Assembly (NCBI RefSeq): GCF_006345805.1 | Contig: NC_043022.1 | Span: forward strand, 10,354,001-10,418,000 | Direction of reading: 5' to 3' | DNA: 64,000 nt | Source: Octopus sinensis | Lineage: Eukaryota | In this document: positions 1,505 to 59,879 of the stretch, piece after piece | Layout of the letters: each line of letters starts with the position of its first letter | Numbering within the stretch: the stretch's first letter is position 1 | Notes under the pieces: generated by a model | What the model was told of the DNA's origin: nothing | The model's input: the letters and a program-made list of their open reading frames with translations, nothing else | Databases searched by the model: none | Position numbers and translations under genes: made by a program

Positions 1505-1697
1505 TCAGTCGACGACCCACACAGACGAGAGATCATCAAATATTTCCTTACCGAATCCATTTTTGGTTGTTACTGGTTGTCGACACTGGGGACACTTTCT
1601 CAGTCTAATTTTAGAGCATTCCCTACATGTTCTTTTGTGTCCACATGGAAGGAATTTCACAGTGACCTGGTTATCTCCACACAGCACACATTTATCC
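1505..1697 (-). CDS. Gene A RING finger exon (MIB/IAP-type C3HC4)
   Basis: tattacag|G GAT AAA TGT...; EDKCVLCGDNQVTVKFLPCGHKRTCRECSKIRLRKCPQCRQPV. Either reads to the stop at 1505-1507 or splices at TTC G|gtaagg (exon end 1552). Confidence 0.85.
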
Positions 1698-2209
1698 CTG
1701 TAATAGCGTAACAGAGAATAAAATAGAATATAAAAACACAGTCTACCAACGACATGAATTCAAACCAAAAATGACATTGTGTATAAGTTTTACAGTGAAT
1801 ATTAAAATGTTAAAGGGGAAAAATTATACTGGTGTTTTTGTATTAAAGACTACAGAAATATATTTATGATACCACAATATCTATGTATATATCTGTCTGT
1901 CCATCCATCACCTAGATCTATTTATCTATCTTTCTGTCTATCTATCTATCTATCTATCTATCTATATATCTTTCTGTATCTATCTATCTTTCTGTCTATC
2001 TATCTATCTATCTATCAATCTATCTATCACCACAGGTGTGCTATTCCTGGACGTTATTCCTTCTCTGGACCTTTTCTTTCTCCTCTTTCTGATGGCTTCA
2101 GTGATACACACACACATGCATGCAGGTTATGTATGTATGTATGGCCTCAGTGACATGCGTGTGCGCACGCACGCACACACACGCCAACTTCAAAAGAATT
2201 TCCCTGATC

Positions 2210-3442
2210 GGATCTTTTCGGTTTGAACGGCAGTTTTTTAAAATAATTTCTAGGTAACTAAAAAATGTTAAACTTCGTATACTGGTAGAATGTGTTTATA
2301 AAACATCTTTTTTTCTTGGCTTTCTTGAGAAAATTCTGTAGTTTGTAAGGTCTTTAATTTCTTGCCTTTCGGCAATTTCAGCCAATCAATGACGTCTATT
2401 GAGGTGAAAACGATTTCTGCCGTAACATTTTATGGCGGCGTCATATGAAAATGTCCCCGTTTTTTATGAGAAAAAAGATACCCTGTGGCCATAAACTGAG
2501 GGGTCACTCGTAAACAGAGCTGGATAACAAAACCGTTCCCTATTTAGTGTCCACCCATAATTATGACTCTAGTTTCGATCTATTTATTGCATTTCAATCT
2601 GTTTTAGGGTTAGGGTTAGGGGTATCATTTTTTCTTCTAAAATATAAATAAACCCAATCTGTTTCTTAAACGAGGGACATTTTCATATTTCACTGCCAGA
2701 AAATTTTACGGCAGAGAATGTTGTCACCTCAATAGACGTCATTGATTGGTTGAAATTACCAAAAACAAACTACAGAATTTTCTCAAGAAAACCAAGAGAA
2801 AAAGATGTGGCAATCAATCTTTCGTCTCTAGTAAACCTTTCCGTCGATTTCCGTAAAAAACTTCTTTTTTTTTTTACATATGGGCTTGCGGGAACTTTTG
2901 AAGTAATGAGAGCGAAAGAGTCTAAGAGAAAGCGATTGTATGACGAGGGAAGTTCTTTTGAAGTTACCGTGCATGGGAAGCATTGATGTACATGTGTGTG
3001 TGTGTGTGTGTTTGATGGGGTGTGGGAGACAGACAGTATGTTGTGTAAATGAAGTGCTTCTGTTAGTGTGTGTTAAGAGACAGTAATGTATGAAAGAGAG
3101 AGATAACTGAAATTTTTTACTCGGTGTATGTGTATATGTATGTGTGTGTGTGTGTGTATGTATGTATGGCCGATTCAGTGTTTACATTATTTCGAGTTAA
3201 AACGAAAGATTACCTTTGCCTGTTTATGTAACGGTCTGCTATGTAGAAAATAATGAGGTTGACTCAATGGAATAATGACAGTGATCGAAGATATAGACAA
3301 TTTTTTTTTATTTAATCGTTATACTATTGACGAAAGATCGCCAAAGATGTTTCATAAACACATTCTACAGTATACGAAGTTTAAAAGTGTTTAGTTACAT
3401 AGAAATTATTTTAAAAAACTGCCGTTCAAACCGAAAAGATCC
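2210..3442. mobile_element. Non-autonomous DNA transposon with long TIRs (superfamily uncertain, Merlin-like termini)
   Basis: TIR ggatcttttcggtttgaacggcag at both ends; flanks ccctgatc/ccccgatc (8-bp TSD, 1 mismatch); a further terminus at 5999-6019. Confidence 0.75.
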
Positions 3443-3499
3443 CCCCGATCAAATCGCACTTTCTCTCTCTCTTTTATGCCGACTTCAAAAGGTCCCCTT

Positions 3500-5035
3500 T
3501 CCCTCCAACCACATTTGTAAAAAAATAAATATTTTTTACGGAAACCACCGATGTTATTCAGAAAAGTACCATAAGCTAGCCGAAGTGTGGCTTTGAATTT
3601 GGATAATTTAATTATCGCATGTACAGACAATGCTCCTTCCGTGACTGGAAATCGTGAAGGATTTATTGCCCTGATTTAAAAAATGTCCTATCAGATTCAG
3701 GTGCTCTCAATTGTTTTCATTGTACTTTGCACCAGCAAAATCTGTGCTAAATCGGCCATTTTAATTAACACTCTGCAAAAAGTCACCAATATTGTTAATT
3801 ATATTCGTACCAATGCAACAAGACATCGATAGTTTCGTAATATGTTGTGATTGAACGATGAGGTATTCACTGTGGATTTGCCGTATGAATCTAAAGTGCT
3901 TTGGCTCCCGCAAGGACAAGTGTTGGAAAAAGTTTTAACTTTACGCGAGCAGGTAATAAAATTTTATGAAGAACGAAATGGACAGTATGAATTATTAGCT
4001 GAAGATTTCTACAGGAATACTGCATTTCTTTGTGATATCATCTCAAAGTAAAATGACTTATTTATTTGCGAGGTAAAACAAAATCAGTTTATGACATGTG
4101 GCAAAAAAAATTCAAGCGTTTCGGAAAAAAAAGTTATGTTTTGAAAGATGTTCAAAATGAAATTTCAGGTGTACACTTTCCCCATTTAGTTAAGGTCGTT
4201 CATAACATGAAAAATTATATGAATCCGTTGATGAATATGCACGTGTTCTGGATTTATTAATTGAAGAATACAATGAAAGGTTCGCCGACGTTTCAACCAC
4301 ATCTAGTTGATGCCAAGGAGGCGCAATGGCCCAGTGGTTAGGGCAGCGGACTCGCGGTCGTAGGATCGCGGTTTCGATTCCCAGACCGGGCGTTGTGAGT
4401 GTTTGTTGAGCGAAAACACCTAAAGTTCCACAAGGCTCCGGCAGGGGTGGTGGTGATCCCTGCTGTACTCTTTCACCACAACTTCTCTCACTCTTACTTC
4501 AAAGGGCCGGCCTTGTCACTCTGTGTCACGCTGAATATCCCCGAGAACTACGTTAAGGGTACACGTGTCTGTGGAGTGCTCAGCCACTTACCCGTTAATT
4601 TCACGAGCAGGCTGTTCCGTTGATCGGATCAACCGGAACCCTCGTCGTCGTAACCGACGGAGTGCTTCCCAGTTGATGCCTGCAGGGTTCCTTAAAAGTT
4701 GCAGATGGAATTAATCGCGCTCTCAGAAGATGACATGTTAAAATCATTATTTAACCCTAAAAATAGATCCAGTTGAAGTATGGGAAACTGCAGTAGAATA
4801 TCCAAGACCTGGTCGGCATGCACGAAAAATGCTGTGCTGCTTCTCTACGACATTGCTGCGAATTTACATTTTCGTACTTAAACAAAATCCCTTAAGGTCG
4901 CAGATTACGGATGTCCATCTAGAACATCAGCTTAAACTGTGAACCTCAATGCTACACCAAACATTGAAAGGCTTTCAGACAAAAAACAGCAACATCTTAG
5001 TCACTGAAAGGTGAGTTACGTTTAGAATTAACTAT
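3500..5035 (+). mobile_element. Decayed hAT (Buster/SPIN-like) transposase
   Basis: HCTLHQQNLC motif near 3718; WLPQGQVLEKVLTLREQV and AFLCDI remnants; many stops and frameshifts. Confidence 0.7.
4315..4670 (+). mobile_element. Young tRNA-derived SINE with 10-bp target-site duplication
   Basis: A box tggcccagtgg, B box-like ggtttcgattccc; agttgatgcc at 4305-4314 and 4671-4680; older copies at ~9983-10295 and ~59030-59330. Confidence 0.85.
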
Positions 5036-6785: not shown

Positions 6786-6958
6786 TCAGGTGAGAAAAAT
6801 CCATTTATTTTCTTCTTAAAATCTGGATCTTTTATGATGTCAAGTGGTGTCACATTGCTGTAGTTTTCATAAACTTTATTTCTTTTATCTGTTAGAAAGC
6901 GTTCCACTACTCTCCCAGGAACTTTGTCTTCCTTACTCAAGCCAAGTTTGGAGCAAAA
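6786..6958 (-). CDS. Gene A exon: divergent last ankyrin repeat and linker
   Basis: ttttatag|...CCT GA|gtaagt; FCSKLGLSKEDKVPGRVVERFLTDKRNKVYENYSNVTPLDIIKDPDFKKKINGFFSP; paralogous to 53633-53808. Confidence 0.85.
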
Positions 6959-9446: not shown

Positions 9447-9483
9447 CTGGGTGAGCATCAAGGCCACTACATCATAGTGTTGC
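9447..9483 (-). CDS. Gene A 37-nt micro-exon completing an ankyrin repeat
   Basis: ctttcag|G CAA CAC TAT GAT GTA GTG GCC TTG ATG CTC ACC CAG|gttagt gives LAVLG-QHYDVVALMLTQ; same size and phase as 59843-59879. Confidence 0.85.
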
Positions 9484-10508
9484 CTGAAAGTTAAACAGAA
9501 AGATAACATTAAAACTAAAAGTTGCATTTTTACAGATATTGAGATAATTAATTATTAGATTAATAATTGATGAAAACAAACATAAACAAGAGCAATGTAA
9601 AAGCAAGGTTAACCTAGGTGGTATTTGAACTGAGAACTGGTCAGGTTCTGTCTTGACAGCAGAAACTATGAAGATGTTCGCTCCTTAATAAAGTATATTT
9701 ATCGAGTTCCATAATGAAAAACCCAATATAATGACCTAAAGTGAGTTACAGAATAAAACCTTTTGATATTGGGTCACCTAGCACTGCTCCAGGTTGTATG
9801 ATACAAACTTCATGGTTTAAAATGATCTAAAGTACATTCTTCCATCAAACTCTGATGCTTAATAATCACAAAGTTATTTTGATACATTCTTCATTGTTTT
9901 CAAACTTAACTGAAATGAAGGTTGCAGTGAAGTAAAATTCTGTTAACTGTTCATGAGTGTTGTGCATTCATTATATACAGCCAGGCGCGTGGCTTACTGG
10001 TTAGGGGCATTCGGCTCATGATCGTAAGGTCATGAGTTCAATTCCTGGTGGTGCGTTGTGTCCTTGAGCAAGACACTTTATTTCACGTTGCTCCAGTCCA
10101 CTGAGTTGGCAAAAGTGAGTAGTACCTGTATTTCAAAGGGTCAGCCTTGTCACATTGTGTCACGCTGAATCTCCCTGAGAACTGCATTAAGGGTACACGT
10201 GTCTGTGGATTGCTAGCCACTTGCACGTTAATTTCACGAGCAAGCTGCTCCGTTGATCATATCAGCTGGGACCCTCGTCATCACGGAGTGTTCCTACTAC
10301 ACAGCCAGAACCCAACTCAATTACCAGTATCTCATCCTACTTCATCCTACGTCTATCTTGACAACAGAAACAAAGGCAGTATATTTGAACAGAAATTTGG
10401 TAACAAAATCATTAATGACTCTACAAAAACAAAAACAAACATTATTGAAAATATGAAATTAAAGAGAAAAGAAACAGATGTGAATATTCCAGATTCTTGT
10501 TGACTTAC

Positions 10509-12052
10509 CCTAAAACTGCCAGATGTAGAGGTGTGCTACCATCGTTATTCATCACATTGACATCAGAAGTAAACTTTATCAACGTCGCAACTGTAGCAAT
10601 GCGACCACCCCTACAGGCCAGGTGTAAAGGTGTGTTACCATTACTGGTCAGCACATTGATATCAGGTTTAAACTCCATTAACCGCTTTGCTATGAGATTA
10701 TCTCCATGGTGACAGACCAGATGTAAAGGTGTAATGCCTTTCTTGTCTGCTACATTGATATTAGGTCTGGATTGTAGGAACACCTGTAGAGTATCACTGT
10801 GTCCACAATGACACACCTCATGTAGAGGTGTGTGACCGTACTTATTCCTTAGATTAACATTAGGTTCTGAAAGTATTAACTCTCTAACTGTGTCACTATG
10901 TCCACCTCGACAAGCCACATGTAGGGCTGTATCACCATATTTATTCGTCGCATTGACATCAGCTTTAAGCTGCATTAATACTTTCAGAATGTCCCTGTGC
11001 CCACCACAGCAAGTCACATGCAGCGGTGTATTGCCATTTTCATCCTCCGTATTGACATCAGGCTTAGAGGAAGTTGTCAACAACTTCACGATGGCAGTGT
11101 TTCCACTACCACAGGCCATGTGCAGAGGTGTGGAGCCAAACACATTCTGCGCATTGACATCAGGGGTAGACTTCATCAACAGTGCAACTAAACCACTGCA
11201 TCCACCACCACAGGCCAAGTGCATAGGTGTGTTACCATCATTGTTTGTCATCCTGACATCATGTTTAGATGCTAACAACATCTCTACCATGTTGTGATGT
11301 CCTCCTAAACAGGCCAAGTGCATAGGTGTGTTACCATCATTGTTTGTCATCCTGACATCATGTTTAGATGCTAACAACATCTCTACCATGTTGTGATGTC
11401 CTCCTAAACAGGCCAAGTGCATAGGTGTGTTACCATCATTGTTTGTCATCCTGACATTATGTTTAGATGCTAACAACATCTCTACCATGTTGTGATGTCC
11501 TCCTAAACAGGCCAAGTGCAGGGGTGTGTTACCATCGTTGTTCTTCATCCTAACATCGGGTTCAGATGCTAACACCATCTCTACCATGTCATGATGTCCT
11601 CCTAAACAGGCCAAGTGCAGGGGTGTGTTACCCTCTTTGTTCACCGCATTCGCATCAGGTTTAGATTGCAGGAACATTTTTACTGCACTACTGTGCCTGC
11701 CACGGCAGGCCACATGTAGAGGTGTGTCACCATAAATATTTGCTACATTGGCATCATGTTTGGACTTCAACAACAACTCCACTATGTCAATTTTTTCACC
11801 TTCAGAAGCTACATGAAGTGGTGTGTTACTATACTTATCCCCCACATTGACATCAGGTGCTGACCTCAACAACATCTCCACCATTTCAATTTGTCCACGA
11901 CCACAAGCCACATGTAGAGGTGTTCCTCTACACATTTTATCCACCAAATTGATATCAGCTCCACCTTGCAGCAACAGTTCTACCATGTCAACATTTCCAA
12001 CACTGACAGCCCTATGTAAAGCTGTTCTACCTCCGGGGTCTTCTTCATTGAT
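10509..12052 (-). CDS. Gene A large ankyrin-repeat exon (1544 nt, 16 TPLH-type motifs)
   Basis: tttttcag acceptor at 12053-12054, GG|gtaagt donor at 10507-10508; covers the 493-aa ORF with GxTPLHxAC motifs at ~33-aa period. Confidence 0.95.
11211..11632. repeat. In-frame 99-bp tandem repeat (~4.3 near-identical ankyrin units)
   Basis: caggccaagtgca recurs at 11211, 11310, 11409, 11508 and 11607. Confidence 0.95.
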
Positions 12053-12244: not shown

Positions 12245-12850
12245 TTGTATACAGTGCTCAGGTGCACCACAACTTGTCAGAAAGTGCGTATAGAGTATAT
12301 GCAGTAATGTACAAATGTTTGGAAAGTGAACAATGTATGAGTCAGATACATGCTTGTGTGTGTATGGAGGGGAGAAAATCACGTGTAGTGTTGGCGAATC
12401 TCAGAAAGCATGGAAATTTTGAAGGATGCAGGGTTCCGACAACTAACAACTGATGCCGGCAGTTTGTTCCATGCTTCAGCAACTCTCAGTGTGAAAAAAT
12501 GTTTCCTAAAGTCATGGGAGTTGTGCTGTTTTCTGACTTTGTAAATATGTCCACGGGTGCTAGACGGGTGGAGTTTGAAAAGGTGCTCAGAGTTATTGTT
12601 TGTAAGATGGTTGATAATTTTATGGGTGTCTGCCAAGTCAGCTGCCAGACGTCGGAGTTTCAATGTGTCCATGCCCTGGGAAGTAAGGCGTTCAGAATAT
12701 GGCAAATGCCTGATGGAGGGTATTCTTTTGGTTGCACGTCGCTGAACGGCTTCCAGACGATTGATATCCTGGGCAAGATAGGGGTTCCAGACCGGTGATG
12801 CAAATTCCAGGTGAGGTCTTACCATAGCTATATATAGCTTACCAAAGTTA
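12245..12850 (-). mobile_element. CR1/L2-group LINE 3' fragment
   Basis: LYIAMVRPHLEFASPVWNPY...LEAVQRRATK...TRGH...FFTLRVAEAWNKLP. Confidence 0.85.
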
Positions 12851-13010
12851 TATAAATGTAAGGGGAAGAGTGAGATAGAGAAGTAGAGGGAGAGAAATCT
12901 AAGGGAAGCTAAAACAGTCATACTTTTATGTGTGTGTGTATTTATTTACATATACATAAGCACACACACACATCCAGTTTAGACAAGATGAATGTTCTTT
13001 AGGAAAATTG

Positions 13011-15036: not shown

Positions 15037-15123
15037 TGCTTGTTGATTTTCTGCAATAAATTGCTCAACATATTTAATGTCTCCTTTCATAACCCCGCAT
15101 AAACTCTTGTAAAAGGCCATGTC
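15037..15123 (-). CDS. Gene A (MIB-like ankyrin-RING protein), first identifiable coding exon; candidate ATG at 15120
   Basis: cattcag|GAC ATG GCC...CAA GCA|gtaagt; encodes (D)MAFYKSLCGVMKGDIKYVEQFIAENQQA. Joins in phase 0 to INEEDPGGRTALH, giving an N-terminal ankyrin-like repeat. Confidence 0.75.
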
Positions 15124-16049
15124 CTGAATGTATCAAAAGATGAATAAAATATGCTAGAAAGAGATAGAAATAAACAATAATAATTTAAAAATTAGTTATA
15201 GCAAATTATGTAATGAAGGCTGTGTGGTAAGAAGCATGCTTCCTGACAACATGGTTCCGGGTTCAGTCCCACAGCATGGTACTTTGCAGGTGTCTTCTAC
15301 TGTAGCCTCTTGCTGACCAAAGCTTTGTGAGTGGATTTGGTAGACAGAAACTAAAAGAAGCCCTTTGTATATATATATATATTTGTGTATGTGTCTGTGT
15401 TTGTCCCCCTGCTATTGCTTGACAACTGATGTTGGTGTGTTTACGTCCCCAGAAGTTAGCAGTTTGGAGAAAGAGACTGATAGAATAAGGGCTAGGCTTA
15501 CAAAGATTAAGTCCTGCAGTCGATTTCTTCAACTAAACGTGGTGCTCCAGCATGGCAGCAGTCAAATGACTGAAACTAGTGAAAGAGTATACATAAGTGC
15601 AGATGTGGCTGTGTGGTAAGAAGCTTGCTTTGCAACCACTTGGTTCTGGGTTCAGTCCCACTGCATGGCACCTTAGGCAAGTGTCTTCTACTATAGCCTC
15701 GAGTTGACCAAAGTCTTGTGAGTGGATTTGGTAGATGGAAACTGAAAGAAGCCTGTCGTATATATGTATATGCATGTATCTATGTACGTGTTTCTTTGTG
15801 TCTGTGTTTGTCCCCCAATCACCACTTGACAACTGGTGTTGGTATGTTTATGTCCCTGTAACTTAGCAGTTTGGCAAAAAGATACATAGGCGCTAGTGTG
15901 GCTGTGTGGTAAGAAGTTTGCTTCCCAAGCACATGGTTCTGGGTTCTGTCCCACTGCATGGCACCTTGCAGATACAGAAAACGTTGACTCTAAAAACATC
16001 CCATGAAATATTCTTGGTGAACACTGTGTGATGAGGATGCTGATGTTCT

Positions 16050-16785
16050 CTTGAAGTGTTTCAGTTCGCAAAGCAGTGTGCCAGGAGAAATTGCGATATT
16101 GTTGGAAAGAAGGATATTTGCATGGATGATGGTTCACTTGCAGTTAGTGAATCTGCAAAGAAAGAGGCTCGGAAGTGCCACTATGAAAGGCTACTAAATA
16201 TAGAGAACTCATGGGAGAAGCGGGGTCTAGCTAATGAGGTTTCCAACAGAGGGACCAGCAATCGAAATTGACAGGGGCATGGTAGATAAAGCCATAGGAT
16301 ATGAAGACTGGGAAAGCTCCTGACCCATCAGGAATAACTGCTGAGATACTTAAAATATCTGGTGGTGTGGGTTATGGTCTAGTTAACCATTTTGTTAATC
16401 AAGTTGTACACGAGGGAATCCTACCTAATGACTGGTTTGGCAACTCTGTAATCAACTGCTATAAAGGTAAAGGTGACGCCTTAGAGAGAAATAATTACAG
16501 AGGTATCAAATTGTTGGATCAGGTGATGAATGTTACGGAACAGGTCTTAGCCCAACAAATTAAGAAGAGACGTTATCTAGATGAGATGCAGTTTGGTTTT
16601 CTGCTAGGGAGAAGCACCACTGATGCTATTATATTCCTGGGAAGGAAGCAGCAGGAGAAGTACTTAGCCAAAAATAAACGTTTGTACTTGGCTTTTGTTG
16701 ACATGGAGAAAGCCTTTGACAGGGTCCCTCACTTCCTTATCTGGTGCCATGCAGAAGCTAGGGTAGATGAGTGGTTGGTGCACCC
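16050..16785 (+). mobile_element. Older RTE LINE RT fragment
   Basis: MKTGKAPDPSGITAE...NNYRGIKLL...QFGF...AFVDMEKAFDRV. Confidence 0.85.
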
Positions 16786-17102
16786 ATACCAGTTGCACAT
16801 AAATGCATTCATGTCAGTGGCATGTAAATAGCACCCATTACATTCTTGGAGTGGTTTGCATTAGGAAGGGCTTCCAGCCATAGAAACCATGCTAAATCAG
16901 GCAGGAACCTAGTGCAGCTCCCAGGGTTACCAGTTTCAGTCAGACTGTCTAACCCATGGAAAGGGGACACTAAATGATGATGATATATATATACGTATAT
17001 GTATGTGTGTGTCGTCATCATCATATATGTCGCCATGATAGATCGTTAGCTACTTCACATTTTTTTTCACTCCTTGTTTCTCTCCTTGTTTTTTCTGTGT
17101 AC

Positions 17103-21627: not shown

Positions 21628-24600
21628 GACAGGCTTCTTTTAGTTTCTGTCTACCAAATCCACTCACACGGCTTTGGTCAGCCTGAGGCTATAGTAGAAG
21701 ACACTTGCCCAAGGTGCCACGCAGTAGTACACACACACACACACACATATATATATGTAAATAAAATAACAAGGGCAGCTATATGCAATATAAAACCGAA
21801 AAGGAAAAATTCAACTGTCACTAATTGTGACGGAAGGTGGCAGGAAGCACTTATACTGCTAGAAATAAGAGCTAAAAACCCTTAGAGCTGCAAGAAAGCA
21901 CATTTTCATATATTGACATATATAAACATACACACACACACACACACACACATATATATGTATGTGTGTTTATATATGTGTGTGTATGTATATATGTATG
22001 TATGTATGTATATATATAGAGAGATATATACCGCAAAATTACTGCATTTCTAATGCTTCTTTGAAATCACATAGGTCAATAAGTGAAATAAGAAAAATTG
22101 ACAATTTACCTAAAAAAGGAGAATATTTGTCGTTGGTTCTATGTATTGTGTAGAGACCGAAGATTGCGATCTTTCCGTTCTTCCTCGGAAATCTGTGAGT
22201 TTTCCTTTTCTTATGTTCATTCTATAAAGACAGGATGTAAATACTCTGAACCAATAAAACTTCTCATTTTTCCTGTAACTTTTTTATTTATTTTTATTTT
22301 ATTTTATTCTGTTACTTTTCTTTCCTACTTTTTCCTCTTCCCCTCTCACTTCTACCAGACCTGCCACCATACACCTCTTCAAACCCATAACTCCTATCTT
22401 CTATTTTTACAAATTCTATTCATCTCTTCACAAATGTATTTACTTATTAACATATCAATTCTACTGCATATTTCTTATCCTTTCTGCTTAGTATGTCATA
22501 TCTACACTATAACAAAGTAAATGTAATGAATAAACAGTGTACAGAGGCTTAGAAGCTGGAGTTAATTGTTAGATTTTTGAGTTAGTGTTCTAATTTGTTA
22601 TGTCCTGCTAATGAGCTGAAATTACTAAGATATGCAAAACATTTGTAGCTTTTATTCTCCTCATAAAGTGTAATTAATCAGACAGAAAATATGTAGCTAG
22701 GTCATAGGTGTACAGAAGAATATCTTTGATATTAAATAATATATTGTATTTAACTAAGGCGACAAATTGACAGAATCATAAGTGTGGTGCTTGGGGGGAA
22801 AATGCTTAGCAGCAATTCGTCTATCTTTATGTTCAGAGGATTTAGTCAAACAAATCAGTCCCTGTACTTATTTTACTTTTCAAGTCTGGTAATTACTTTA
22901 TCAGTCTCATTTGCTGAACTGCTAAGTTATGGAGGAATACACAAACCAGCACCAGTTGTCAAACTGTGGTGGTTTGTTTTGTTTGTTCCTTCTCGAGCCA
23001 TGCCTGGCTCATAAGGGCCGGTTTTCTGGTTTCCTTGGCGTATAGGTTCCCCAACTGGACGGGACGCCGGCCCGTCACAGGTGAGCTGCAAGATGCAGGA
23101 GGAAAGAGTGAGAGAAAGTTGTGGCGAAAGAGTCAGCAGAAGTTCACCATTACCTTCTGCTGGACCCGCTTGAAGCTTAGGTGTTTCGCTCATAAACACA
23201 CTCATCACCCGGTCTGAGATTTGAACCCACGATCCCTCAACCGCGAGTCCGTTGCTCTAACCACTAGGCCATGTGCCTCCACCAAACTGGGGTGGGGGAC
23301 AAACACAAATACAGACACACACCACTACACCTTACACCACCATACCACATAACACATCCCATCACAACACACCACCACACGCATATCAGAACTGGCCACT
23401 TCCCAGACCCACATTTTCACACTTAAACATACGCACACATGAAGATCAACAGCCCTCTTCCAAACACACATACAAACTCTCTTATACACACGCACGCGCA
23501 CCTTCGTTTTAGGATCACCACTACTTTATTATCTCCCCTTCTCCCTAGCTCTCCTGTGTGACCCTTCTGTCTGGCATTCACCATGATAGATCGCTAGCCA
23601 CTACACATTCTTTATTTTCTCTCTTTGTTTCTTTGTCTTCCTTTCTGTGGAAGAGCATAGGCTCAAAATGTTAAAGACTTTTTCACTTCCTGAGCGTTAT
23701 ACTAATACATCTGTTTGTTGTCTACACCACCTGTCTTTGTATTTTGTTTTTTTGTGAATTCCCCCACTATATATATATATATAATATGTGTGTGTGTGTG
23801 TGCAGTATGGATGAATGAGAAGAGCTGTGTGAAAAAATGCCACTCCCAAACAGTGGAAGGAATCTGAGGTAGCAGGAGATGCAGGAAGACATGGAATGAG
23901 GTGGTGAAGCGTGACCTTTGAATGTTGGGCCTCACAGAGGCAATGACAAAAGACTGAGTCCTCTGAAGATATGCTGTGACTGAGTGAGATTGAACCCAGA
24001 CTCATGTGGTTGCAATGCAAGCTTCTTACCACACAACCACTTGTGATACTTCTTTTTTTTTTTTTAGTAACCTTCTGTATTTCAAAAACATTTGTATATA
24101 TTTTAACGTATAGTACCACTTGTGTACTGGAGAAATATTGATGTTACAGACTAATTGTGCCTCCTTAAAATTTGCTGGCCTTGTGCCCTTAATTAGAAAC
24201 CCATAATGTTATTATTACACCACTACTACTACTACAACTGCTGCTGCTGTTGCCGCTGACACCACCACCACTGTTACTACTACTACTACCACTACCACAA
24301 TTGCCACTACAACAGTCACCACCACTGTTACGACTTCTACCATCACTACTACTACTACTACAACGAGACTGAGTAACAACTCCCTATAATATATGTTCCA
24401 TATAACTTGAAATATCCTCCATTAAAAATGTCTGTTTTATCTCTTCAGACATGAAAATATTGTTCACGTTGTTCTTCATGTTCTGGCGACTTCTGGCTTA
24501 TTTAAAAACCTGTTTGACAACTGGAATGTGTTGTTGTGGAGGTGGTGGTGGGGGTGGGGGGGTGGGGGTATTAGCAGTGTTGATGGTGGGATATTGGCAG

Positions 24601-31313: not shown

Positions 31314-31315
31314 AT

Positions 31316-35574: not shown

Positions 35575-35621
<47 letters not shown>

Positions 35622-40295: not shown

Positions 40296-40849
40296 CAGGG
40301 TCAGGCAAAATGATCTGACACATTTGTAGGTTAAATAAAAGGCAAATGCAGTAAAGAAACAAAAAAGTGTTTTTATTTTTGAAAAGTTCATATAATGCCA
40401 TTTTGTTTCATTATGTTTTAAAAATTAAATCAGTCAAATGGGATCCATTATTGTCCACACACTGTCGAAGGCGTTCACGAAAGTTGTCAATAACTCGGCG
40501 GATCATTTCATGTGGAATGGCAGTAATTTCTTGACGAATTGCATCTTTAAGTTCTGGCGGTGCGAGGTCGGCCGGTTGATTTTCGTTTCAATGCAGATCC
40601 AGTAGCTCTGAAATTGGTAACCCATAACAAGATCGTGTTTCGAGCTGGTACGGGATCATGTCTACCAAGATTGAAGTGCAAACGGCACGCTCTTTGTGTT
40701 GCAGTTACAGAATCGTTTGTTTTGATAAACGTTTCCACAATGAAAGCGCGATGCTCACCAGTCCAATTCATGGCAGCAACTGAAAAAGAAACGAAAAACA
40801 ATGCCTTTTATTTAACCTACAAATGTGTCAGATCATTTTGCCTTACCCT
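40296..40849 (-). mobile_element. Internally deleted Tc1/mariner element
   Basis: TIR cagggtcaggcaaaatgatctgacacatttgtagg; N-terminal HTH (MNWTGEHRAFIVETF...TGRPRT) fused to the transposase C-terminus. Confidence 0.85.
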
Positions 40850-41439: not shown

Positions 41440-44190
41440 GCAACACTAACTTCAGGAAACCTACCAGCCACCTAGTCACCTACCGATCGGGCCGACATAC
41501 CAGCCAAATTGACTACATCCTTGCCAGGAAAAGGGAAAGATGGCTGCTTATAAATGCCAAAACCTTCCCAGGCGAAGAATGCACCCCGCAACATAGAGTG
41601 GTAGTTAGTGACTTTAGGATCAGGACTAAGAGGACAACCAGAAGACGACCAACATGGAGAAAAAGGATCTGGAAGCTTAAAGATCCTGCGAATGGACAGA
41701 AATTTAGGGACATATTACTTGAAGCCTTTGACGAAGTAGAAGGGGATAGAGCATCACATGGGGTAGAAGACAACTGGACGTTTCTAAGGGACAACCTGCT
41801 AAGAGCCACTGACCAGATCTGTGGCTGGTACAAAGTCCCCTCTCGTCCCAAGGTAACGTGGTGAAGGAACAATGTTGTAGACAGGGCTATTAGAGAAAAG
41901 AGACAGGCTTGGAAGGACTGGAAGAATGGTGGTAGCAGAGAATTGTATCAGACTGCCAAAAGGGAAGCTAGGAGACAGGTCTTTCTAGCCAGAGGGGAAG
42001 CAGATAAGAAAAAATTTGCCAATGTTCTGCGCCATGAGGACCAAAGACTGGAGGTGTTTCGTGTTGCAAGACAGTGTGTGAGTGAGAATTGTGATGTGGT
42101 AGGAGAGAAATGTGTTCGCATGGATGATGGTTCACTTGCGCTAAATGAGGATGCAAAGAGAGAGGTTTGGAGACGCCACTATGAAAGGTCGCTGAATAAA
42201 AAAAATGAATGGGATAAAGAGAGTCTGCCGAATGTCGACCCAACAGAGGGACCAGCTATCTGAGTTGACAGTTCCTTGGTAGTTAAGGCAATTAGAAGCA
42301 TGAAGACAGGAAAAGCCCCAAGCCCATCAGGAATCACTGCAGAGATGCTCAAAATATCTGGTAGTGTCAGCTATAGCCTAGTCACCCATATAGTTAATCA
42401 GGTGATACACGAAGGAGTCATACCCTATGACTGGTGTAGCACTGATGCTATATTCCTGGTAAGGCAGCTGCAGGAGAAATACCTAGCCAAAGATAAGCCC
42501 CTGTACCTGGCTTTTGTTGACATGGAGAAAGCCTTCGACAGGGTCCCCCAATCCCTTATCTGGTGGTCAATGAGGAAACTAGAGATAGATGAATGGTTAG
42601 TGAGAGCTGTGCAAGCCATGTACAGGGACGCCGCTAGTAAGGTGAGGGTTGGCAACGAGTACAGTGAAGAATTCCGGGTAGAGGTAGGGGTCCATCAAGG
42701 CTCAGTCCTCAGCCCCCTCCTATTTATCATAGTCCTCCAGGCAATAACGGAGGAATTCAAGACAGGATGCCCCTGGGAGCTCCTCTATGCTGATGACCTT
42801 GCTCTAATTGCTGAGTCACTTTTAGAACTGGAGGAGAACTTTAAGGTGTGGAAGCAAGGATAAGAATCGAAGGGTCTTAGAGTCAATCTAGCTAAAATCA
42901 AAGTCCTAATAAATAGGAAGGTAGACAAATCACAAACGCCTTCAGGTAGATGGCCCTGCTCGATCTGTAGAGAAGGTGTAGGTAGAAACTCTATAAGATG
43001 CACCAGGTGTAAGCTATGGACACATAAGAGGTGCAGCAAAGTCAAAGGAAGGCTAACTGGGAAGATAGTTTTTGTATGTGGCAGATGCTCAGGAGCAATA
43101 AACACTGAAAATGCTCTGAGACCAACTTCTGCCACATTCCAGGGAGAAAAACTAGAAATAGTTGATAGCTTCCATTACCTAGGTGACCAAGTCAGTAGTG
43201 GGGGTGGGTGCATTGAAAGTGTAACTGCTAGAGTAAGAATAGCCTGGGCAAAGTTTAGGGAGCTCTTACCTCTGCTGGTGACTACAGGCCTCTCGCTCAG
43301 AGTAAAAGGCATATTGTATGACGCATGTGTATGAACAGCCATGCTACATGGGCCGTGACTGCTGAAGACATGCGTAAGCTCACAAGAAATGAAGCCAGTA
43401 TGCTCCAATGGATGTGTAATGTCAGTGTTCATACTCGACAGAGTGTAAGTACCTTGAGAGAAAAGCTGGACCTAAGAAGCATCAGTTGCAGTGTGCAAAA
43501 GAGACGTTTGCGCTGGTATGGTCATGTGGCGAGAATGGATGAAAATAGTTGTGTGAAAAAGTGCCACACCCTGGCAGTTGAGGGAACCTGTGGAAGAGGC
43601 AGACCCAGGAAAACCTGGGACGAGGTGGTGAAACACGACCTTCGAACTTTAGGTCTCACTGAGGAAATGACTAGAGACCAAGACCTTTGGAAGTATGCTG
43701 TGCGTGAGAAGACCCGGCAGGACAAGTGAGACCATAACCTGTGGCCTCTACATGGGATGTAGCTGGTCCACTTATGCATACCTTTCCTTCTTGGGACACA
43801 AAACTCTACTTGTGAAGACCTGTTGAGGCAAGTGAGAATCAGAATCGAAATCGATCAACATCAATGGAAATTGTAGGTGTGATACCAGTGTCGGTGGCAC
43901 GTAAGAGAACCATCCGAACGTGGCCGTTGCCAGCGCTGCCCCGACTGGCCCCCGTGCCGGTAGCACGTAAAAAGCGCCATCCGATCGTGGCCGTTTGCCA
44001 GCCTCGTCTGATACCTGTGCCAGTGGCACATAAAGAGCACCCACTACACTCAGAGTGGTTGGCGTTAGGAAGGGCATCCAGCCGCAGAAATATTGCCAGA
44101 TCAGACTGGGCCTGGTGCAGCCTTCTGGCTTCCCAGACCCCAGTTGAACCGTCCAACCCATGCTAGCACGGAAAGCAGACGCTAAACGAT
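41440..44190 (+). mobile_element. RTE-clade LINE, 5'-truncated and decayed (endonuclease end, RT, 3' UTR)
   Basis: AFVDMEKAFDRV, GVHQGSVLSPLLF, LLYADDL and RRLRWYGHVARM motifs; in-frame stops and an internal deletion. Confidence 0.9.
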
Positions 44191-45544: not shown

Positions 45545-45548
45545 TACG

Positions 45549-45754
45549 TTAACTTCTTTTAGTTGGTAAATAGTGAATAGCTTCAAAACATTCTGCCTCT
45601 TTGAGAGCTTTTTTTAGAACATCAACAGTACGTTGCTCTGGTCTGGAACTCTGGTACCACCTGTTTAACATTTGGAAGCTCTGTTCTTGTGTGTTTAAAG
45701 GATAATCACACCTGATATTATCCAGTTGTATGCTTTTAATTCCTAGAAAAATTC
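45549..45754 (-). CDS. Gene B terminal coding exon, rest of death domain and stop
   Basis: cttttgcag|GA ATT...AGT TAA; IFLGIKSIQLDNIRCDYPLNTQEQSFQMLNRWYQSSRPEQRTVDVLKKALKEAECFEAIHYLPTKRS*, showing the death-domain LG..I..I...EQ..ML..W..T...L..AL pattern. Confidence 0.85.
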
Positions 45755-50150: not shown

Positions 50151-50222
50151 CAACTTGCCGCCATTTGTTTGATAACTGTTTTGCTATACTGAGAATGTCC
50201 CTCTCATCCAGTTTTTGAGAAT
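50151..50222 (-). CDS. Gene B death domain, N-terminal part
   Basis: ttctttcag|AT TCT...GTT G|gtgagt; DSQKLDERDILSIAKQLSNKWRQVG. Confidence 0.85.
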
Positions 50223-51366: not shown

Positions 51367-51443
51367 CTGTCACTTGAGGTTCACTGCCCTGATTACCACT
51401 ACACAATGGACTCTGATTACCACTACACAATGGACTCTCCAAT
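51367..51443 (-). CDS. Gene B 77-nt exon at the position of the RING exon (degenerate RING)
   Basis: ttgtttcag|A TTG...ACA G|gtgagt; LESPLCSGNQSPLCSGNQGSEPQVT; phase 2 to 1 like exon 1552-1697, with homologous upstream intron. Confidence 0.75.
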
Positions 51444-52189
51444 CTGAAACAAAATAAAAACACAGCCCACCAATAGCATTAATTAACACTAAATAATATA
51501 TAGTATACAGGTTTACAGTGAATATTACAATACTCAGAGAAAAGATCAATTGTAGAATAAAATATTTAACATATAAACTGGCTCAAATATTCTACCTGTT
51601 TTATACTTAACAGGTTAACTGCCACAGTCCATACTGAAAATTACCAATGATGACATCTATTTCCAGTCATACTGCGTACTGTTTAATTACAAGGAAATGT
51701 CATTTATTTTCATTTCTCCACTATTTCATAATTAAGCTTTAATATTCAGCACTCATGTTATCTAACCATTAGGAGACAACAGGGATGATCCATTGGCCGA
51801 AAAGTTGAATGACAAAGATTCTGTTAGTTCATTCAATTTTCTATACAAGAATATATGTAGTTTTATACATGTAAAGTAATTTTTTATAATTTTTTTTTTT
51901 TTTGAAAATTAAGTGCATGCTCTCTGTAGAGCTAGGGAAAAGGGTTCTGTCTTCTTAGCACTGAAACTCCAAATGGTTAAATATCCTGTCAAAGATACAG
52001 AATAAAATATTTTCTTAAATTGTGAAAATATACCAGCAACAGTGCATATAGCAGTTGTATGAAGTTTGCAATGATCCACCAGTGGTGTACATGAGGCAGT
52101 TAACATGTTAAACCAACCAGATTTAGTTTCTCACACCTACTCTACATTGTCATTCTAAAATAATCAACAAAATCATGAAAATCTATAGT

Positions 52190-53632: not shown

Positions 53633-53808
53633 CGAGGTGGATAAAGCACTTTTATTTTCCTTTTCAGATCTTGATCTTCAATGAGATCAATTGGTTTGGT
53701 ATTGTATTTGTTTCTACAGTAAAGGTCTGCTCCTTGCTCTGCTAGATAGCTAACCACTACAGCAGCAGAAAGTCTGGCTTCTTTAGCAAAACCAAGCTTT
53801 AAACAGCA
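53633..53808 (-). CDS. Gene B exon: MIB-type last ankyrin repeat
   Basis: ctttgtag|TGC...CCT CG|gtaagt; CCLKLGFAKEARLSAAVVVSYLAEQGADLYCRNKYNTKPIDLIEDQDLKRKIKVLYPP resembles the MIB1 segment [29 protein letters not shown] (recalled from memory). Confidence 0.9.
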
Positions 53809-54184: not shown

Positions 54185-56417
54185 TCATCATCATCATCGT
54201 TTAACGTCCGCTTTCCATGCTGGGTTGGATGATTTTGACTGAGGGCTGGCAAACCAGATGGCTGCACCAGGCTCCAATCTTGATCTGGCAGAGTTTCTAC
54301 AGCTGGATGCCCTTCCTAACGCCAACCACTCCGAGAGTGTCGTGGGTGCTTTTTATGTGCCACCGGCATGGGGGCCAGTCAGGCGGTACTGGCAACGACC
54401 TCACTCAAATCTTTTTACACGTGCCAGTGAAGCGACGGTAATGATCACGCTCGAATGGTACCCTTTTATGTGCCACTGGCACGGAAGCCGGTTAGCTGCT
54501 TTGTCACTGATCACACTTGTATGGTGCTCATTGCACCCCGCTAGCATAGATGCCAGTCATCGAATTTGATTTTGGTTGATTTCACTTGCCTCAACAGGTC
54601 TTCACAAGCAGAGTTTAGTGACCAAAGAAGGAAAAGGTATGCATAAGCGGGCTGGTTACGCTCCTGGCATAGGCCACAGGTTATGGTCTCATTTGGCTTG
54701 CCGGGTCTTCTCAAGCACAGCATATTCGAAGGCCGTGCTTCACCACTTCATCCCAGGTCTTCCTGGGTCTACCTCTTCCACAGGTTCCCTCAACCGCTAG
54801 GGTATGGCACTTTTTCACACAGCTAACCTCATCCATTCTCGCCACATGACCATACCAGCGCAGTCGTCAATCTTGCACCCAAACTTCTAATGCTTCTTAG
54901 GTCCAGCTTTTCTCTCAAGGTGCTTACACTGTCAAGTATGCACACTGACATTGCACATCCATCGGATCATACTGGCTTCATTCCTTGTGAGCTTATGCAT
55001 GTCCTCAACAGTCACAGCCCATATTTCACTGCCGTGTAGCATGGCTGTTCATACACATGCATCATACAGTCTGCCTTTTACTCTAAGCGAGAGGCCCTTT
55101 GTCATCAGCAGAGTTAAGAGCTCTCTGAACTTTACCCAAGCTATTCTTATTCTAGCAGCTACACTTTCAGTGCACCCTCCTCTGCTACTGACTTGGTCAC
55201 CTAGGTAACGGAAGCTATCAACTATTTCTAGTTTTTCTCCCTGGAATGTGGCGGAAGTTGATCTCTGCACATTTTCAATATTTATCGCTCCCGAACATCT
55301 GCCACATACGAAAACTATCTTCCCAGTTAGCCTTCCTTTGATATTACTGCACCTCTTATGTGTCCATAGCTTACACTGGGTACATCTTATAGAGTTTCTA
55401 CCTACGCTTCTACTACAGATCAAGCAGGGCCATCTACCTGAAGGGATTTGTGGTTTGCCTGCCTTCCTACTTATTAGGACTTTGGTTTTAGCTAGGTTGA
55501 TTCTAAGGCCCCTCAATTCTAATCCTTGTTTCCACACTTGAAACTTCTCCAGTTCTGATAGTGACTCAGCAATTAGAGCAAGGCCGTCAGCAAAGAGGAG
55601 CTCCCAGGGGCATCCTGTCTTGAATGCCTCCGTTATTGCCTGGAGGACTATGATAAATAGGAGGGGGCTGAGGACTGAACCCTGGTGGACCCCAACCTCT
55701 ACCTTGAATTCTTCAGTGTACTCTTTGCCAACCCTTACCTTACTTACAGTGTCCCTGTACATGGCTTGCACAGCTCACAATAACCATTCATCTATCCCTA
55801 GTTTCCTCATTGACCACCAGATAAAGGATCAGGGGACCCTGTCAAAGACTTTCTGCATGTCAACGAAAGCCAGGTACAGGGGCTTATCTTTGGCTAGGTA
55901 TTTCTCCTGCAGCTGTCTTACTAGAAATATGGCATCAGTGGTGCTTTTCCCTGGCACGAAACCAAACTGACTTACTCCCTAATCCTTTGATACTTCTGTA
56001 ATTATTTGTATCTAGGGTGTCACCTTTACCTTTGTAGCAGTTGACTATTATGCTGCTACACCAGTCATTGGGTATGACTCCTTCGTGTATCACCTGGTTA
56101 ACTATACAGGTGACTAGGCTATAGCCGACACTACCAGATATTTTGAGCATCTCTGCAGTAATTCCTGATGGGCCTGGGGCTTTCCCTGTCTTCATGCTTC
56201 TAATTGCCTTAACTACCAAGTAACTGTCAACTCGGATAGCTGGTTCCTCTGTTGGGTCAACATTCGGCAGACTCTCTTTATCCCATTCATTTTCTTTATT
56301 CAGCAACCTTTCATAGTGGCGTCTCCAAACCTCTCTCTTTGCATCCTCATTTAGCGCAAGTGAACCATCATCCATGCGAACACATTTCTCTCCTACCACA
56401 TCACAATTCTCACTCAC
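54185..56417 (-). mobile_element. RTE-clade LINE copy, 5'-truncated, in a gene B intron
   Basis: ORFs 55049-55771 and 55935-56417 match the 41.4-44.2 kb copy; trinucleotide-repeat tail near 54185. Confidence 0.9.
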
Positions 56418-57548
56418 AGTATATATATATATATATACATATGTTTATATCATTTGAATTTACAGAAAAGAAAAGACAAACAGGTGAGGGAACAACAAGC
56501 AGGTGTATTAGTTTGATGCTAGAGAAGACTGCAAATTTCTGACGTTTTGAGCCCATGCTCTTTAACAGAAAGGATTGAGAGGTGAAAAAAGGAGAAAGAA
56601 TTAAAAAAAAAATGGAGAGAGAAAAAATGTGTGGGGATTAATGGTTCAACATGATGAAATATACACATTTACATAACTCATAAAACAGGTAATAACAACA
56701 TGATGAGTATGCACAGCATGTCCAAATTCAACCAAACCACAATGATTATCCTGGTCATACCAATATAAAAGGCTTTTAATGCTTCAACTCCAACTTTTAC
56801 AGAACACAAAGGATTTTCACTGGAAATACTCATCTCTCTGAGGTCCTTACATTCAACAGTATTATATGACATGACACAAGATGCCAGTGGATGTATGGAG
56901 ACCTGTTACAGTTAGAACTCTTCTCAGAATGAAATAAGCACTAAAGAGGTTATCTTTGACTTGAGACAGCATTCACCCGAGGTGGGTTGAGCTGGCTTCA
57001 CCCGGGTGGGTTGAGCTGGCTTCACCTGGTGTGGGTTCAGCTGGGTTCAGCTGGCTTCATTCATCCTCAATGCTGCATCTCTCACAAGAGATGTACAAAG
57101 AGGTTATCTAATCATGTCAAACAGCCCTCTCTTCTATGATAGATCATTATTTTGGAATGATCGTTTTGACTTCACACTTTGATGACAAATTTTTTAGGAG
57201 TTGCTCTCAATACAGTAGAGGAGCCATGTGTTTGAGGATGCAAGGAGGTTGAATATTACTGGTAATGTAATTCAAGTAGGCTTTATCAGAAGGGACTGTG
57301 ATATTTAACAGTGATGTAGGAGGGATCAGGCCATTGCCAAACTGAGGTTCATTATCTGGTGTGAAACAGATGATGCATGTTGAGCACCTTGACAGGTGCT
57401 GAAGCACAAGCCTTAGTCAACAATAGTATCAGTCAGGGAGTCTGACTGGGGTGGTACACCTGTCAAATGGTATGCGAATGGATGTGAACTGAGCCATGAC
57501 AAACAATATCCATCAGTCTCTCTCTCACAAGATAGTTTTGAAACTTAC

Positions 57549-57761
57549 CTTATCTAAGGCTTCAATATGTTTAGTCTCAGATTTAAACCTCCTTTTCTTC
57601 AAGGCTAGATGAAGAGAAGTATCTCCATACATATCACCAGCATTAACATCAGCCCCTTTCAACACTAAAGCATGAATCAGTCCCACATGTCCATTGGAGA
57701 CAGCATTATGCAATGGTGTTTGTCTATCATCATGGTCTTGAATATTCAGTTGTATTTGATC
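57549..57761 (-). CDS. Gene B ankyrin exon (213 nt, phase 0-0)
   Basis: caatatag|GAT CAA...GAT AAG|gtaagt; DQIQLNIQDHDDRQTPLHNAVSNGHVGLIHALVLKGADVNAGDMYGDTSLHLALKKRRFKSETKHIEALDK. Confidence 0.9.
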
Positions 57762-57889: not shown

Positions 57890-58900
57890 CTATAATTTGG
57901 AATATCTAGTCACTTCTTGCATAATGAGTACAACCAGTTTCTGGATGAAAGCAGAGTCCTATCTTCTTTCCTATTTGCTGTCCCTTCAACTTTTATTAAG
58001 TTTACCTTCAGGCCTCGTGATTCTATGTTTTGCTTCCATAACTGGAATTTTTCCTTTGAATCATCTACCACAGATTCAGTTCCAAGAACTCCATATTGGA
58101 GGTCCCACATCCAGTCAGATTTACATTCCTGTTATGGCCTGGAGGATTATAATAAACAGGAGGCAATTGAGGATTAAACTTTGGTAGATCCCTACCCACA
58201 CATTGAACTTATTGCTAATGCACCTCATTGACTTGCACAGCTGTCACAAGGCCCTCATCTACATCTAGTTTTCTTAGTGACAACCAGATTACAGAACATA
58301 AAAACACTCTTAACCATTAAACAGTTAAATTGGCCATATCCAGCCCAAATATTCTACATGTTTTATGTTGAAACTGGCCAGATCCAACTTTTCATATTTA
58401 CCTTACAATATCATTCTAAAAATAAACAATCATATCGTTGAAATCTTGAGGCAATGAGATAATGCAGGATTAACTCAAGACAATGTGAATAAATAAGTAT
58501 CACATTTGACCAAGTAATCTGAATACTGCAGGTCAATGAATGCTAGGTATAGGCTAGCTCTGAACTTCTCTTGCAGTGGTCTCATCAGAAAGAGGGCATC
58601 AGTGATACCTCTTTCTGGTACAAAACTGAACTGCACCTCAAGAAAGATATTTCTGTTCTTAATCAGTAACTTTCATAAGCTAGACCACCAACTTGATGCC
58701 TCTGTAGTTTCCTCTCTCCTGTATCTCCTTTACCTTGTAATAATTAACAATAATTCTGTTTGCACCAGTCATTAGGTATAACACCTATTTTTATTTCCTG
58801 ATTGGCTATGATCCTCATCTGAAATATTCAGTATCTTTGCAACTATACCAAATAGTGTAGCTGCCTTTCCTGTCTTCATATCCTCAAGCATTCTATCTGC
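57890..58900 (-). mobile_element. Highly decayed RTE LINE fragments interrupted by a MITE
   Basis: KFQLWKQNIESRGLKVNL and ctttcctgtcttcat (MKTGK) remnants. Confidence 0.6.
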
Positions 58901-59341
58901 TGTACTGCCATCAGCCATTAACTTGGATGGCTAGTCCATCTGTTGGGATTGATTGAATATTTTTCTGTCATGCAAACAAACAATTCTTCACTTTGTTCAT
59001 GTCCTTCAACTATCTTTGCTATTCCATGTAGCTTAGTGGTAGGGAGTATTCAGTTCACAATCATAAGGTTGTGAGTTTGAATCATGGCAACGTGTTGTGT
59101 CCTTAAACAAGACACTTTATTTCACATTCCTCCAGTTAACTCAGTTGGCAAAAGTGAGTTGTACCTATATTTGAAAGAGCCAACCTTCTCACATTTGGTC
59201 TCATGCTGAATCTCTCTAGGAACTACATTAAGGGTATGTGTGTCTGTGGGGCCACTTTCACATTTATTTTGCAAGCAGGCTGTCCTGTTGATTAGATCAA
59301 TCAGAGCATATGTTTTCATAACCAATGGAGTGTAGTTATAC

Positions 59342-59538
59342 TAGGTGCTGATAAGGTCCTGGGTTTGGGTAAAAAACTACAGGATCAATTATTTTATTCA
59401 ACATATTCCCCTCTCAGATTCACACACTGAGTGGCACTTCGGTTTTTTTAAGCCCTGTAAAAAAAAACTCAGATGGTTGGGCCTCCAACCAGGGCTTTCA
59501 TGGTACCCTTAAAACTAGGAACTTTTCAGCACCCCTCA
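59342..59538. mobile_element. ~200-bp mariner-derived MITE (partial copies 545-657, 715-886, 18725-18860)
   Basis: Termini ggtgctgataaggtcctgg / ggaacttttcagcaccc; recurs in the window. Confidence 0.65.
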
Positions 59539-59842
59539 TTTATATTAGCCTATAATAAGGTGTGTATACTGTATCATTTGGTATATATTTACACAGAACA
59601 ATGTGATATATTTTGGTTTCATATTTAGATCTAAAGTATATGTTGTATCATGTGACCATTGTCAACGTGATGGTCATTTTCACAATGGCTATTGTCAACA
59701 CCACAAATATTGCTATCCTAATTACCACTATGTACCATGCTTCTCTATATTTGTATGGGTTGGATATGTTTGTTTCACCAACAATGATGATATTGAACAA
59801 CCAACAATGATAAATGCTAAAGGAGTGTATATACTGACTAAC

Positions 59843-59879
59843 CTGGGACAGCAACAATTCCACCATTTTCTGATCATTC
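59843..59879 (-). CDS. Gene B (MIB-like ankyrin-death domain protein) 37-nt micro-exon; upstream exons not found in window
   Basis: ctttcag|G AAT GAT CAG AAA ATG GTG GAA TTG TTG CTG TCC CAG|gttagt; NDQKMVELLLSQ. Confidence 0.85.

Follow-up and report, generated by a model that had tools for sequence, protein, structure and literature searches.

We describe two genes, A and B, encoded on the minus strand of a 64,000-nucleotide stretch of the Octopus sinensis genome (2.7 Gb), C26:10354001-10418000, here called the window; coordinates without a C26 prefix are window positions. Both are genuine octopus genes, and their exon structure and a tree place them as descendants of the ubiquitin ligase MIB2 that have lost the MZM and REP regions and in which the terminal RING exon has been replaced by two phase-1 death domain (DD) exons. 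Gene A encodes a 753-aa protein with the order ANK15-RING-DD, ANK denoting ankyrin repeats, and gene B a 406-aa ANK-DD protein. We favor, with a probability of roughly 55%, the view that A and B are intracellular adaptors in which the ankyrin repeats would bind a target and the DD would hand on the signal, its partners being death-fold proteins of immune or cell-death pathways; for the immune or cell-death role the argument is purely one of domain logic.

The derivation from Mind bomb put forward in an earlier, sequence-only reading of the window is borne out, specifically from MIB2, by common intron phases and the tree. Searches with MIB_HERC2 and SH3_15 place octopus MIB2 at C26:20.27-20.32 Mb and MIB1 on C13; the same searches gave no match near the A/B locus and none in the gene B protein P0001. 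The last exons of MIB2, which translate in a single frame, measure 149 (phase 0-2), 157, 155, 127 (2-0), 210 (0-0), 176 (0-2) and 197 nt (RING1, 2-1) and are followed by a phase-1 last exon encoding RING2. The corresponding series in the family of A and B is n (0-2), 37 (2-0), 213, 173/176, RING (2-1), DD (1-1) and DD (1-stop). The family ankyrin exon (0-2) has its two boundaries where the MIB2 149-nt exon has them within the repeat, and the MIB-type last ankyrin repeats are present in the tails of A and B. In a tree of 18 sequences built from three exons (A is short of one, the B and MIB1 rows are partial, and the second of three RINGs was used for starfish MIB2), support is 99 for the family and 98 for the wider group to which octopus MIB2 and one REP-bearing MIB2-like gene also belong. 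Octopus MIB1 and starfish MIB2 stand apart, branching within the family is weak, and all 15 family rows are nearer to MIB2 than to MIB1. None of the 12 genome matches to the terminal catalytic RING (MIB1 RING3/MIB2 RING2) lies at the A/B locus, where DD exons are found instead. We infer that the ankyrin array grew inside the former 149-nt MIB2 exon via 99/102-bp duplications and that the DD cassette was inserted at the last phase-1 intron. The idea of the members with two RINGs as a basal intermediate found no support in the tree; they fall among the DD genes, with weak support.

The first exon seen for gene A (22110..22262) is 5' untranslated and is joined to 15153 by contigs in runs X9 and X11; it holds a 36-codon upstream open reading frame (22110-22221) that ends at the splice junction. 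The start exon (15037..15153, ATG at 15120) encodes the first, capping ankyrin helix pair. An in-frame stop precedes this ATG in the spliced contigs, so that no MZM/REP lies ahead of it in the transcripts seen. The 1544-nt ankyrin exon (10509..12052, phase 0-2) encodes 15 full repeats (Pfam Ank, 15 stretches, E 3e-118). Repeats 5-8, which are 86-100% identical, are a recent 99-bp tandem expansion (11210-11641; TRF period 99, 4.4 copies); repeats 7 and 8 are identical, and no contig in the runs examined spans the near-identical repeats at 11285-11603. The 37-nt exon (9447..9483, phase 2-0) supplies the second helix of an ankyrin repeat and has CT..AC joints in four of four runs. Gene A has no counterpart of the 213-nt ankyrin exon of gene B, contigs splicing directly across to the 173-nt exon (6786..6958, phase 0-2), whose MIB2 homologue is the last ankyrin exon, of 176 nt. 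The 146-nt RING exon (1552..1697, phase 2-1; Pfam zf-C3HC4_3, E 8.5e-13) retains eight of eight zinc ligands, and its best non-self match in the genome is MIB2 RING1 (62%). The DD exons lie outside the window on the left (C26:10353673-10353602 and from 10351212) and are joined in contigs; the second scores 24.9 bits with Pfam PF00531 (E 2.3e-5, cut-off 22.6).

The runs used here are presumed to be RNA, which their records do not state, and their tissues are coded. In each of four runs from four studies, one contig of 1.79-1.84 kb contains, free of mismatches, both the 173-nt exon and the last of the DD exons; for X5 and X9 the contig also includes the RING piece, and a 73-nt gap matches the size of the 72-nt DD exon. 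One contig per run links the ankyrin exon to the DD in X1, X5 and X9. The joints 9482/10508 and 6958/9447, with CT..AC ends, are found in four of four runs (three studies), and equal-length contigs extend into the ankyrin exon. The introns are removed at GT-AG ends, and gene A therefore gives rise to spliced transcripts; in every one of the five runs mapped the gene is intact and its introns are removed. The ankyrin-to-DD connection that the sequence-only reading had proposed to check is accordingly seen in the gene A contigs, with no result to the contrary.

The splicing of gene B rests on database models in three Octopus species. Its product P0001 is named by NCBI 'E3 ubiquitin-protein ligase MIB2 isoform X2 [Octopus sinensis]', and the assembled exons correspond to residues 148-406 of this protein. 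The 484-nt main ankyrin exon, outside the window on the right (C26:10418753-10418270), has the same acceptor as that of gene A but is out of frame until an internal ATG. It is followed by a 37-nt exon (59843..59879, phase 2-0) that matches P0001, a 213-nt ankyrin exon (57549..57761, phase 0-0; Pfam Ank) homologous to the MIB2 210-nt exon (51%, E 3e-13), and the family-diagnostic 176-nt exon (53633..53808, phase 0-2), which has the size and phase found in MIB2. At the RING position there is a 77-nt remnant (51367..51443, phase 2-1) without a RING, carrying a deletion and a 27-nt duplication. The duplication is absent from the models of O. vulgaris and O. bimaculoides, and these likewise have no RING, which indicates that the loss is old. 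DD exon 1 (50151..50222, 72 nt, phase 1-1) is skipped in isoform model P0005, and DD exon 2 (45548..45754) runs through the stop codon (Pfam Death, E 5.5e-8); the whole DD reaches 39.8 bits with PF00531 (E 5e-10, cut-off 22.6). In the AlphaFold model of gene B (pLDDT 84) the ankyrin repeats form a stack and the DD has six helices, and residues 291-315, which include the RING remnant, are a linker modeled with low confidence. Between species (P0001 versus P0002) the DD is less conserved, with 42 of 61 residues kept versus 123 of 138 in the last ankyrin exons. The sequence at 40550-40800 is transposon-like, and isoform P0003 seemingly ends in such sequence (unaligned), not in DD exon 2. The ankyrin-(RING)-death architecture proposed for both genes is complete in gene A, and gene B lacks the RING. 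The proposed span leaves out the DD exons of gene A and the main ankyrin exon of gene B.

A and B share not only a strand but also equal exon sizes and phases, as had been read from the sequence: 37/37 nt (2-0), 173/176 nt (0-2) and the RING-position exon (2-1). The claim that their introns can be aligned also held, both quoted pairs scoring far beyond random windows. Introns 9484-9585 and 59880-59980 score 121 against a random maximum of 27 (n=2957 windows), with 83% identity over 102 nt, and introns 1730-1810 and 51453-51530 score 63 against a maximum of 26 (n=2951 windows). The conserved stretches occupy 9484..9585 in gene A, paired with 59880-59980 in gene B, and 1727..1808, paired with 51451-51531, all on the minus strand. 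Among the loci compared, the best non-self match of A is B, and that of B is A, at either intron, which fits a local duplication. This duplication is old, given that the proteins are distant (41% identity in the DD2 exon). Neither gene has a close paralogue, the best matches in the 173/176-nt exon being 46% for A and 60% for B.

A and B belong to a multigene family, as the sequence-only reading had supposed, and this family is large. At least 130 matches to the 176-nt diagnostic exon (149 candidates) and at least 110 to the last DD exon (142 candidates) are found genome-wide, and these counts are lower bounds, the search having missed gene A's own exon. A DD exon follows within 40 kb on the same strand after 60 of the 130 diagnostic exons, with a RING match between in 19 of these; the 60 include ten closely spaced copies from C1, those fetched being intronless and broken. 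MIB2 itself accounts for one of the 130, and 75 are on small scaffolds that are possibly haplotypes or cut short; on placed chromosomes the DD link is present in 27 of the remaining 44. The number of ankyrin repeats per single exon ranges from ~4 to ~39. The longest array lies at C29:1.722-1.727 Mb, where a 1317-aa open ankyrin frame (~39 repeats) stands upstream of family exons. Tandem arrays with a ~3.5-kb unit at C1:41.73-41.76 and C1:107.08-107.10 Mb consist of intronless, stop-ridden retrocopies of family mRNA, and these preserve the ankyrin-to-DD splice order.

For the last RING exon of MIB2 type the genome gives 12 matches (29 candidates), eight of which follow family exons. None of these eight has a DD match (the overlap being judged by eye across two genome searches), so that the DD and the terminal RING behave as alternative 3' ends at one phase-1 intron. 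Three of the eight genes are on C18 (37.17-37.34 Mb), two, with stops, on C27 (11.06 Mb), one on C28 (12.28 Mb) and two on C29 (10.78 and 12.26 Mb). In six of them the last exon is open, and these may be active ankyrin-RING ligases. REP-bearing MIB2-like genes with no MIB_HERC2 match, located at C26:19.38-19.58 and 20.36 Mb and on C6102, C6146, C9915 and C10200, form a second set of MIB2 duplicates that are truncated.

By the defining domains A and B are not MIB ligases, though of MIB2 descent. They resemble MIB2 and MIB1 in the C-terminal ankyrin exons (210/213 and 176 nt), the first RING and the intron phases; among the 60 PDB sequences listed, the MIB1 ankyrin structure (8v0e) reaches furthest into the tail of gene B (stretch 17-280, TMq 0.55). 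They differ in that the family has no MZM/REP, terminal RING or coiled coil, and has a variable ankyrin count, a C-terminal DD and >100 loci. According to a study of human MIB1 (10.1101/2024.03.01.582834), its role in Notch signaling requires MZM/REP, with ANK, RING1 and RING2 dispensable; its activity rests on RING3, the homologue of the MIB2 second RING, and an ANK-RING1-2 construct without RING3 does not self-ubiquitinate. In human MIB2 it is likewise the second RING, not the first, that ubiquitylates cFLIP-L in TNF death signaling (PMC7815719). Judged by these domain requirements, the family retains what Notch signaling can spare and drops what it needs, and from the missing domains we predict that Notch-ligand ligase activity is absent from A and B.

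All eight zinc ligands are present in 24 of 28 family RING exons, that of gene A among them, and not in gene B; the Arg after the last Cys is kept in three of the 24 intact RINGs, gene A among them. The gene A RING also keeps the Pro and has hydrophobic residues at the V965- and M989-like sites, with Gln at the I994-like site. The retained RING is homologous to the dispensable RING1 of human MIB2, and gene B has lost it, so that an output through the RING is doubtful; of the RING and/or DD outputs previously proposed, the DD is joined to the ankyrin repeats by splicing in gene A, and the RING has probably been kept in a mostly structural role.

The source of the DD was sought in structure and sequence. 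The best PDB matches of the family DD are Fas (E 3.5e-4) and then RIPK1 (E 0.1), and other DD genes of the O. sinensis genome have a mean identity of 16-22% to the family DDs (20-22% for ankyrin and DAPK-like DDs). A DD tree of 38 rows, based on one exon, resolves neither the donor, the direction of transfer nor the DD subtype; in the Atlas the DD alone reaches only generic Death clusters, below 0.9, and the top Foldseek matches are designed DARPins, uninformative on the DD. At C26:23375865-23410500 two tandem ankyrin-free genes carry the family's two-exon DD with matching splice-site flanks. Their DDs are 47-49% identical to that of gene B, with no ankyrin match in 141 kb, and each has a low-complexity exon and a RHIM-like exon (recognized by eye only, and duplicated in one gene) ahead of the DD. 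Pfam called no RHIM in these genes, and a crude pattern scan found no kinase motif. The pair may be candidate IMD/RIPK1-like adaptors, and DD donor, recipient or signaling partner of the family. Two further kinds of locus concern the DD. At C14:63.83-63.87 Mb (L134:4498-5154, L135:5404-6054) there are two single-exon CARD + DD genes of RAIDD-like architecture, the first with a Pfam CARD (E 1.3e-12); a complex prediction for the gene B DD with the CARD-DD protein of C14:63.83 Mb, made without alignments, scored 0.01, which speaks neither for nor against binding. Repeated copies of the intron stretch preceding DD exon 1, with short repeated exons, occur at C2:61.19-61.25 and C27:8.23 Mb, and the C2 locus has a family DD with no ankyrin match in 60 kb.

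The ankyrin surface was compared at repeat positions fixed in advance, namely 2, 3, 5, 13 and 14, which we take to be the sites randomized in DARPins, plus 10. From 142 repeats of 30 loci, ten were removed (four from a non-family gene and six of another exon type), and the 132 analyzed include a group at C27:9.96-10.75 Mb whose family membership is unconfirmed. Across 48 independent pairs the ratio of surface dN to framework dS is 2.64 (1.63-4.37) and that of surface dN to its own dS is 1.43, and core positions are under purifying selection (0.26-0.44; 0.44 in the 48 pairs). Codon models give a higher omega for the surface than for the framework in six of six groups (surface/framework 2.97/1.10, 1.78/0.63, 0.85/0.61, 0.78/0.40, 0.75/0.41 and 1.37/0.51). 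The surface evolves faster everywhere, yet positive selection is not established: the variable surface predicted from the sequence stands as faster evolution, and positive selection is clear in just one of the six groups and not in gene A.

In the adaptor reading of A and B, the ankyrin array would bind a target, the DD would then assemble with death-fold partners and pass on the signal, and the signal would enter an immune or apoptotic pathway. Fixed targets are more probable for A and B, which are old and single-copy, than for the young copies that are multiplying on C27, C29 and unplaced scaffolds. Several observations weigh against this interpretation. Many copies of the family are broken or sit on small, possibly haplotype, scaffolds. 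For repeats placed on chromosomes (27 pairs) the surface ratio falls to 1.31 (0.75-2.52), and for gene A it is 1.46 (0.84-2.92); omega > 1 is significant in one group of six (2dL 5.4) and is lost after correction for six tests, with three groups below 1, and faster surface change is equally compatible with relaxed constraint. Gene B shows six differences from its O. vulgaris orthologue in the first 289 residues, and in the gene A RING the E2-binding loop still has its Arg and Pro.

A broader and tentative extension, which we hold possible and doubtful in its full form, is that the family is a MIB2-derived, 'DARPin-like' repertoire of intracellular immune receptors with interchangeable outputs, signaling via the RHIM-like/DD adaptors without ankyrin repeats that are encoded on the same chromosome and share its DD cassette. 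Duplication within the exon and substitution at the surface would reshape its single-exon arrays of ~4-39 repeats, and its outputs would be the terminal RING, or the DD with or without a RING activated by clustering.

The alternative that best survives, although we consider it unlikely, is that gene A and other members with a RING have E3 ligase activity, with the DD substituting for MIB coiled-coil dimerization and clustering the RING, so that targets bound by the ankyrin repeats would be ubiquitinated on assembly. The complete ligand set of gene A and of most family RINGs, its hydrophobic residues, Pro and linchpin-position Arg fit this proposal, and the best PDB matches of its RING are the active cIAP/XIAP RINGs (E 2e-8); since the Arg after the last Cys is kept, ligase activity of gene A is a possibility. 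MIB1 dimers are also more active than monomers (10.1101/2024.03.01.582834). The RING concerned is, however, the homologue of MIB2 RING1, which is dispensable in human MIB2 (PMC7815719), the Arg is missing from all but three of the 24 intact family RINGs, the I994-like site of gene A is occupied by Gln, and gene B persists in three species without a RING.

We think it improbable that A and B are decoys or inhibitors that would cap DD assemblies with a DD borne on an inert scaffold, or compete with MIB2 for ankyrin partners. Such a role would suit proteins that have lost both functional ends of MIB2, and in gene B the RING as well; it would also suit the gene B isoform models, one skipping DD exon 1 and another ending in a transposon-like exon, and the related DD of the two ankyrin-free genes offers a possible target. 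A competitor of MIB2, however, would have no need of the divergence from MIB2 and the wide variation seen in the ankyrin surfaces, and dozens of copies are many for a decoy. A similarly low standing is given to a birth-and-death family that is largely under relaxed constraint, or that provides non-immune (e.g. neural or germ-line) scaffolds with the DD as a generic dock. Close paralogues have dN/dS of 0.66 in the RING exon (nine pairs) and 0.71 in the DD2 exon (ten pairs), many copies are frameshifted or form arrays of broken retrocopies, and omega > 1 is not robust; against this stand the purifying selection on core ankyrin positions, the spliced and intact state of gene A in five runs and the conservation of gene B in three Octopus species. 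One-to-one orthology to a conserved ankyrin-DD gene (ANKDD1A/B, ankyrin or DAPK) is suggested by the nearest ESM Atlas clusters of gene B 228-406, which are ANKDD1A/B (0.90-0.91, with only 149-159 shared features), and is very improbable, being contradicted by the intron phases and the tree, besides the MIB2 exon sizes, the MIB-type RING, the 130 loci and the low identity of ankyrin/DAPK-like DDs.

With ANKDD1A/ANKDD1B the octopus proteins share ankyrin repeats and a C-terminal DD, and differ in a probably separate origin. By ancestry they are not ANKDD1 orthologues, in line with the sequence-only reading; ANKDD1 is set apart here by that ancestry, not by direct comparison. To our knowledge ANKDD1 has no MIB2 exons or RING and is of low copy number. 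The coupling of a recognition or scaffold part to a C-terminal DD is also a property of PIDD1, RIPK1, Fas/FADD and IMD-type adaptors, and the family lacks the LRR, ZU5, kinase and transmembrane parts of those proteins. A molluscan parallel (PMC8917759) is the expansion of oyster IAPs that pair RING and DD, the RING of the octopus family being IAP-like in sequence; these IAPs carry BIR domains in place of ankyrin arrays, and IAPs are described there as least expanded in Octopus. The concave ankyrin face, conserved in MIB1 (10.1101/2024.03.01.582834), is fast-changing in the octopus family.

Protein database searches returned only gene B, its O. bimaculoides orthologue, generic ankyrin proteins and one starfish MIB2, and with their word filter are uninformative on taxonomic range. 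In a representative database search with P0002 giant ankyrin proteins dominate, and two of ten hits inspected are octopus family members. No account of the family came to light in the literature searched, closed journals and supplements excepted, and the main text of PMC4199593, in the portion available, has no mention of ankyrin or MIB.

Between A and B the window contains a 480-bp tandem repeat (31315-35579; 8.9 copies, 98% identical), and LINE fragments with reverse transcriptase, recognized by translation, lie at 12382-12945, 16298-16828, 28700-29500, 30637-31194, 41500-43730 and 55050-56440. About 21.6-24 kb to the right of the window, on the minus strand, there is a 776-aa open frame, Thr/Ala/Pro-rich with repeated FG motifs and nucleoporin-like by eye.

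New here are the RNA-joined ANK-to-DD structure of an intact member, the count of DD or terminal RING ends and the ankyrin-free DD pair; dozens of DD loci are concealed under automatic 'MIB2' names. We know of no large variable intracellular receptor family in cephalopod immunity. The family is the mirror image of a minimal Notch-active MIB, the Notch-dispensable parts being kept and the catalytic RING swapped for a DD. It makes testable what the MIB ankyrin repeats and first RING may do beyond Notch, and whether the octopus may use ankyrin arrays for intracellular sensing, with gene A (RING kept) and gene B (RING lost) providing a ready comparison.

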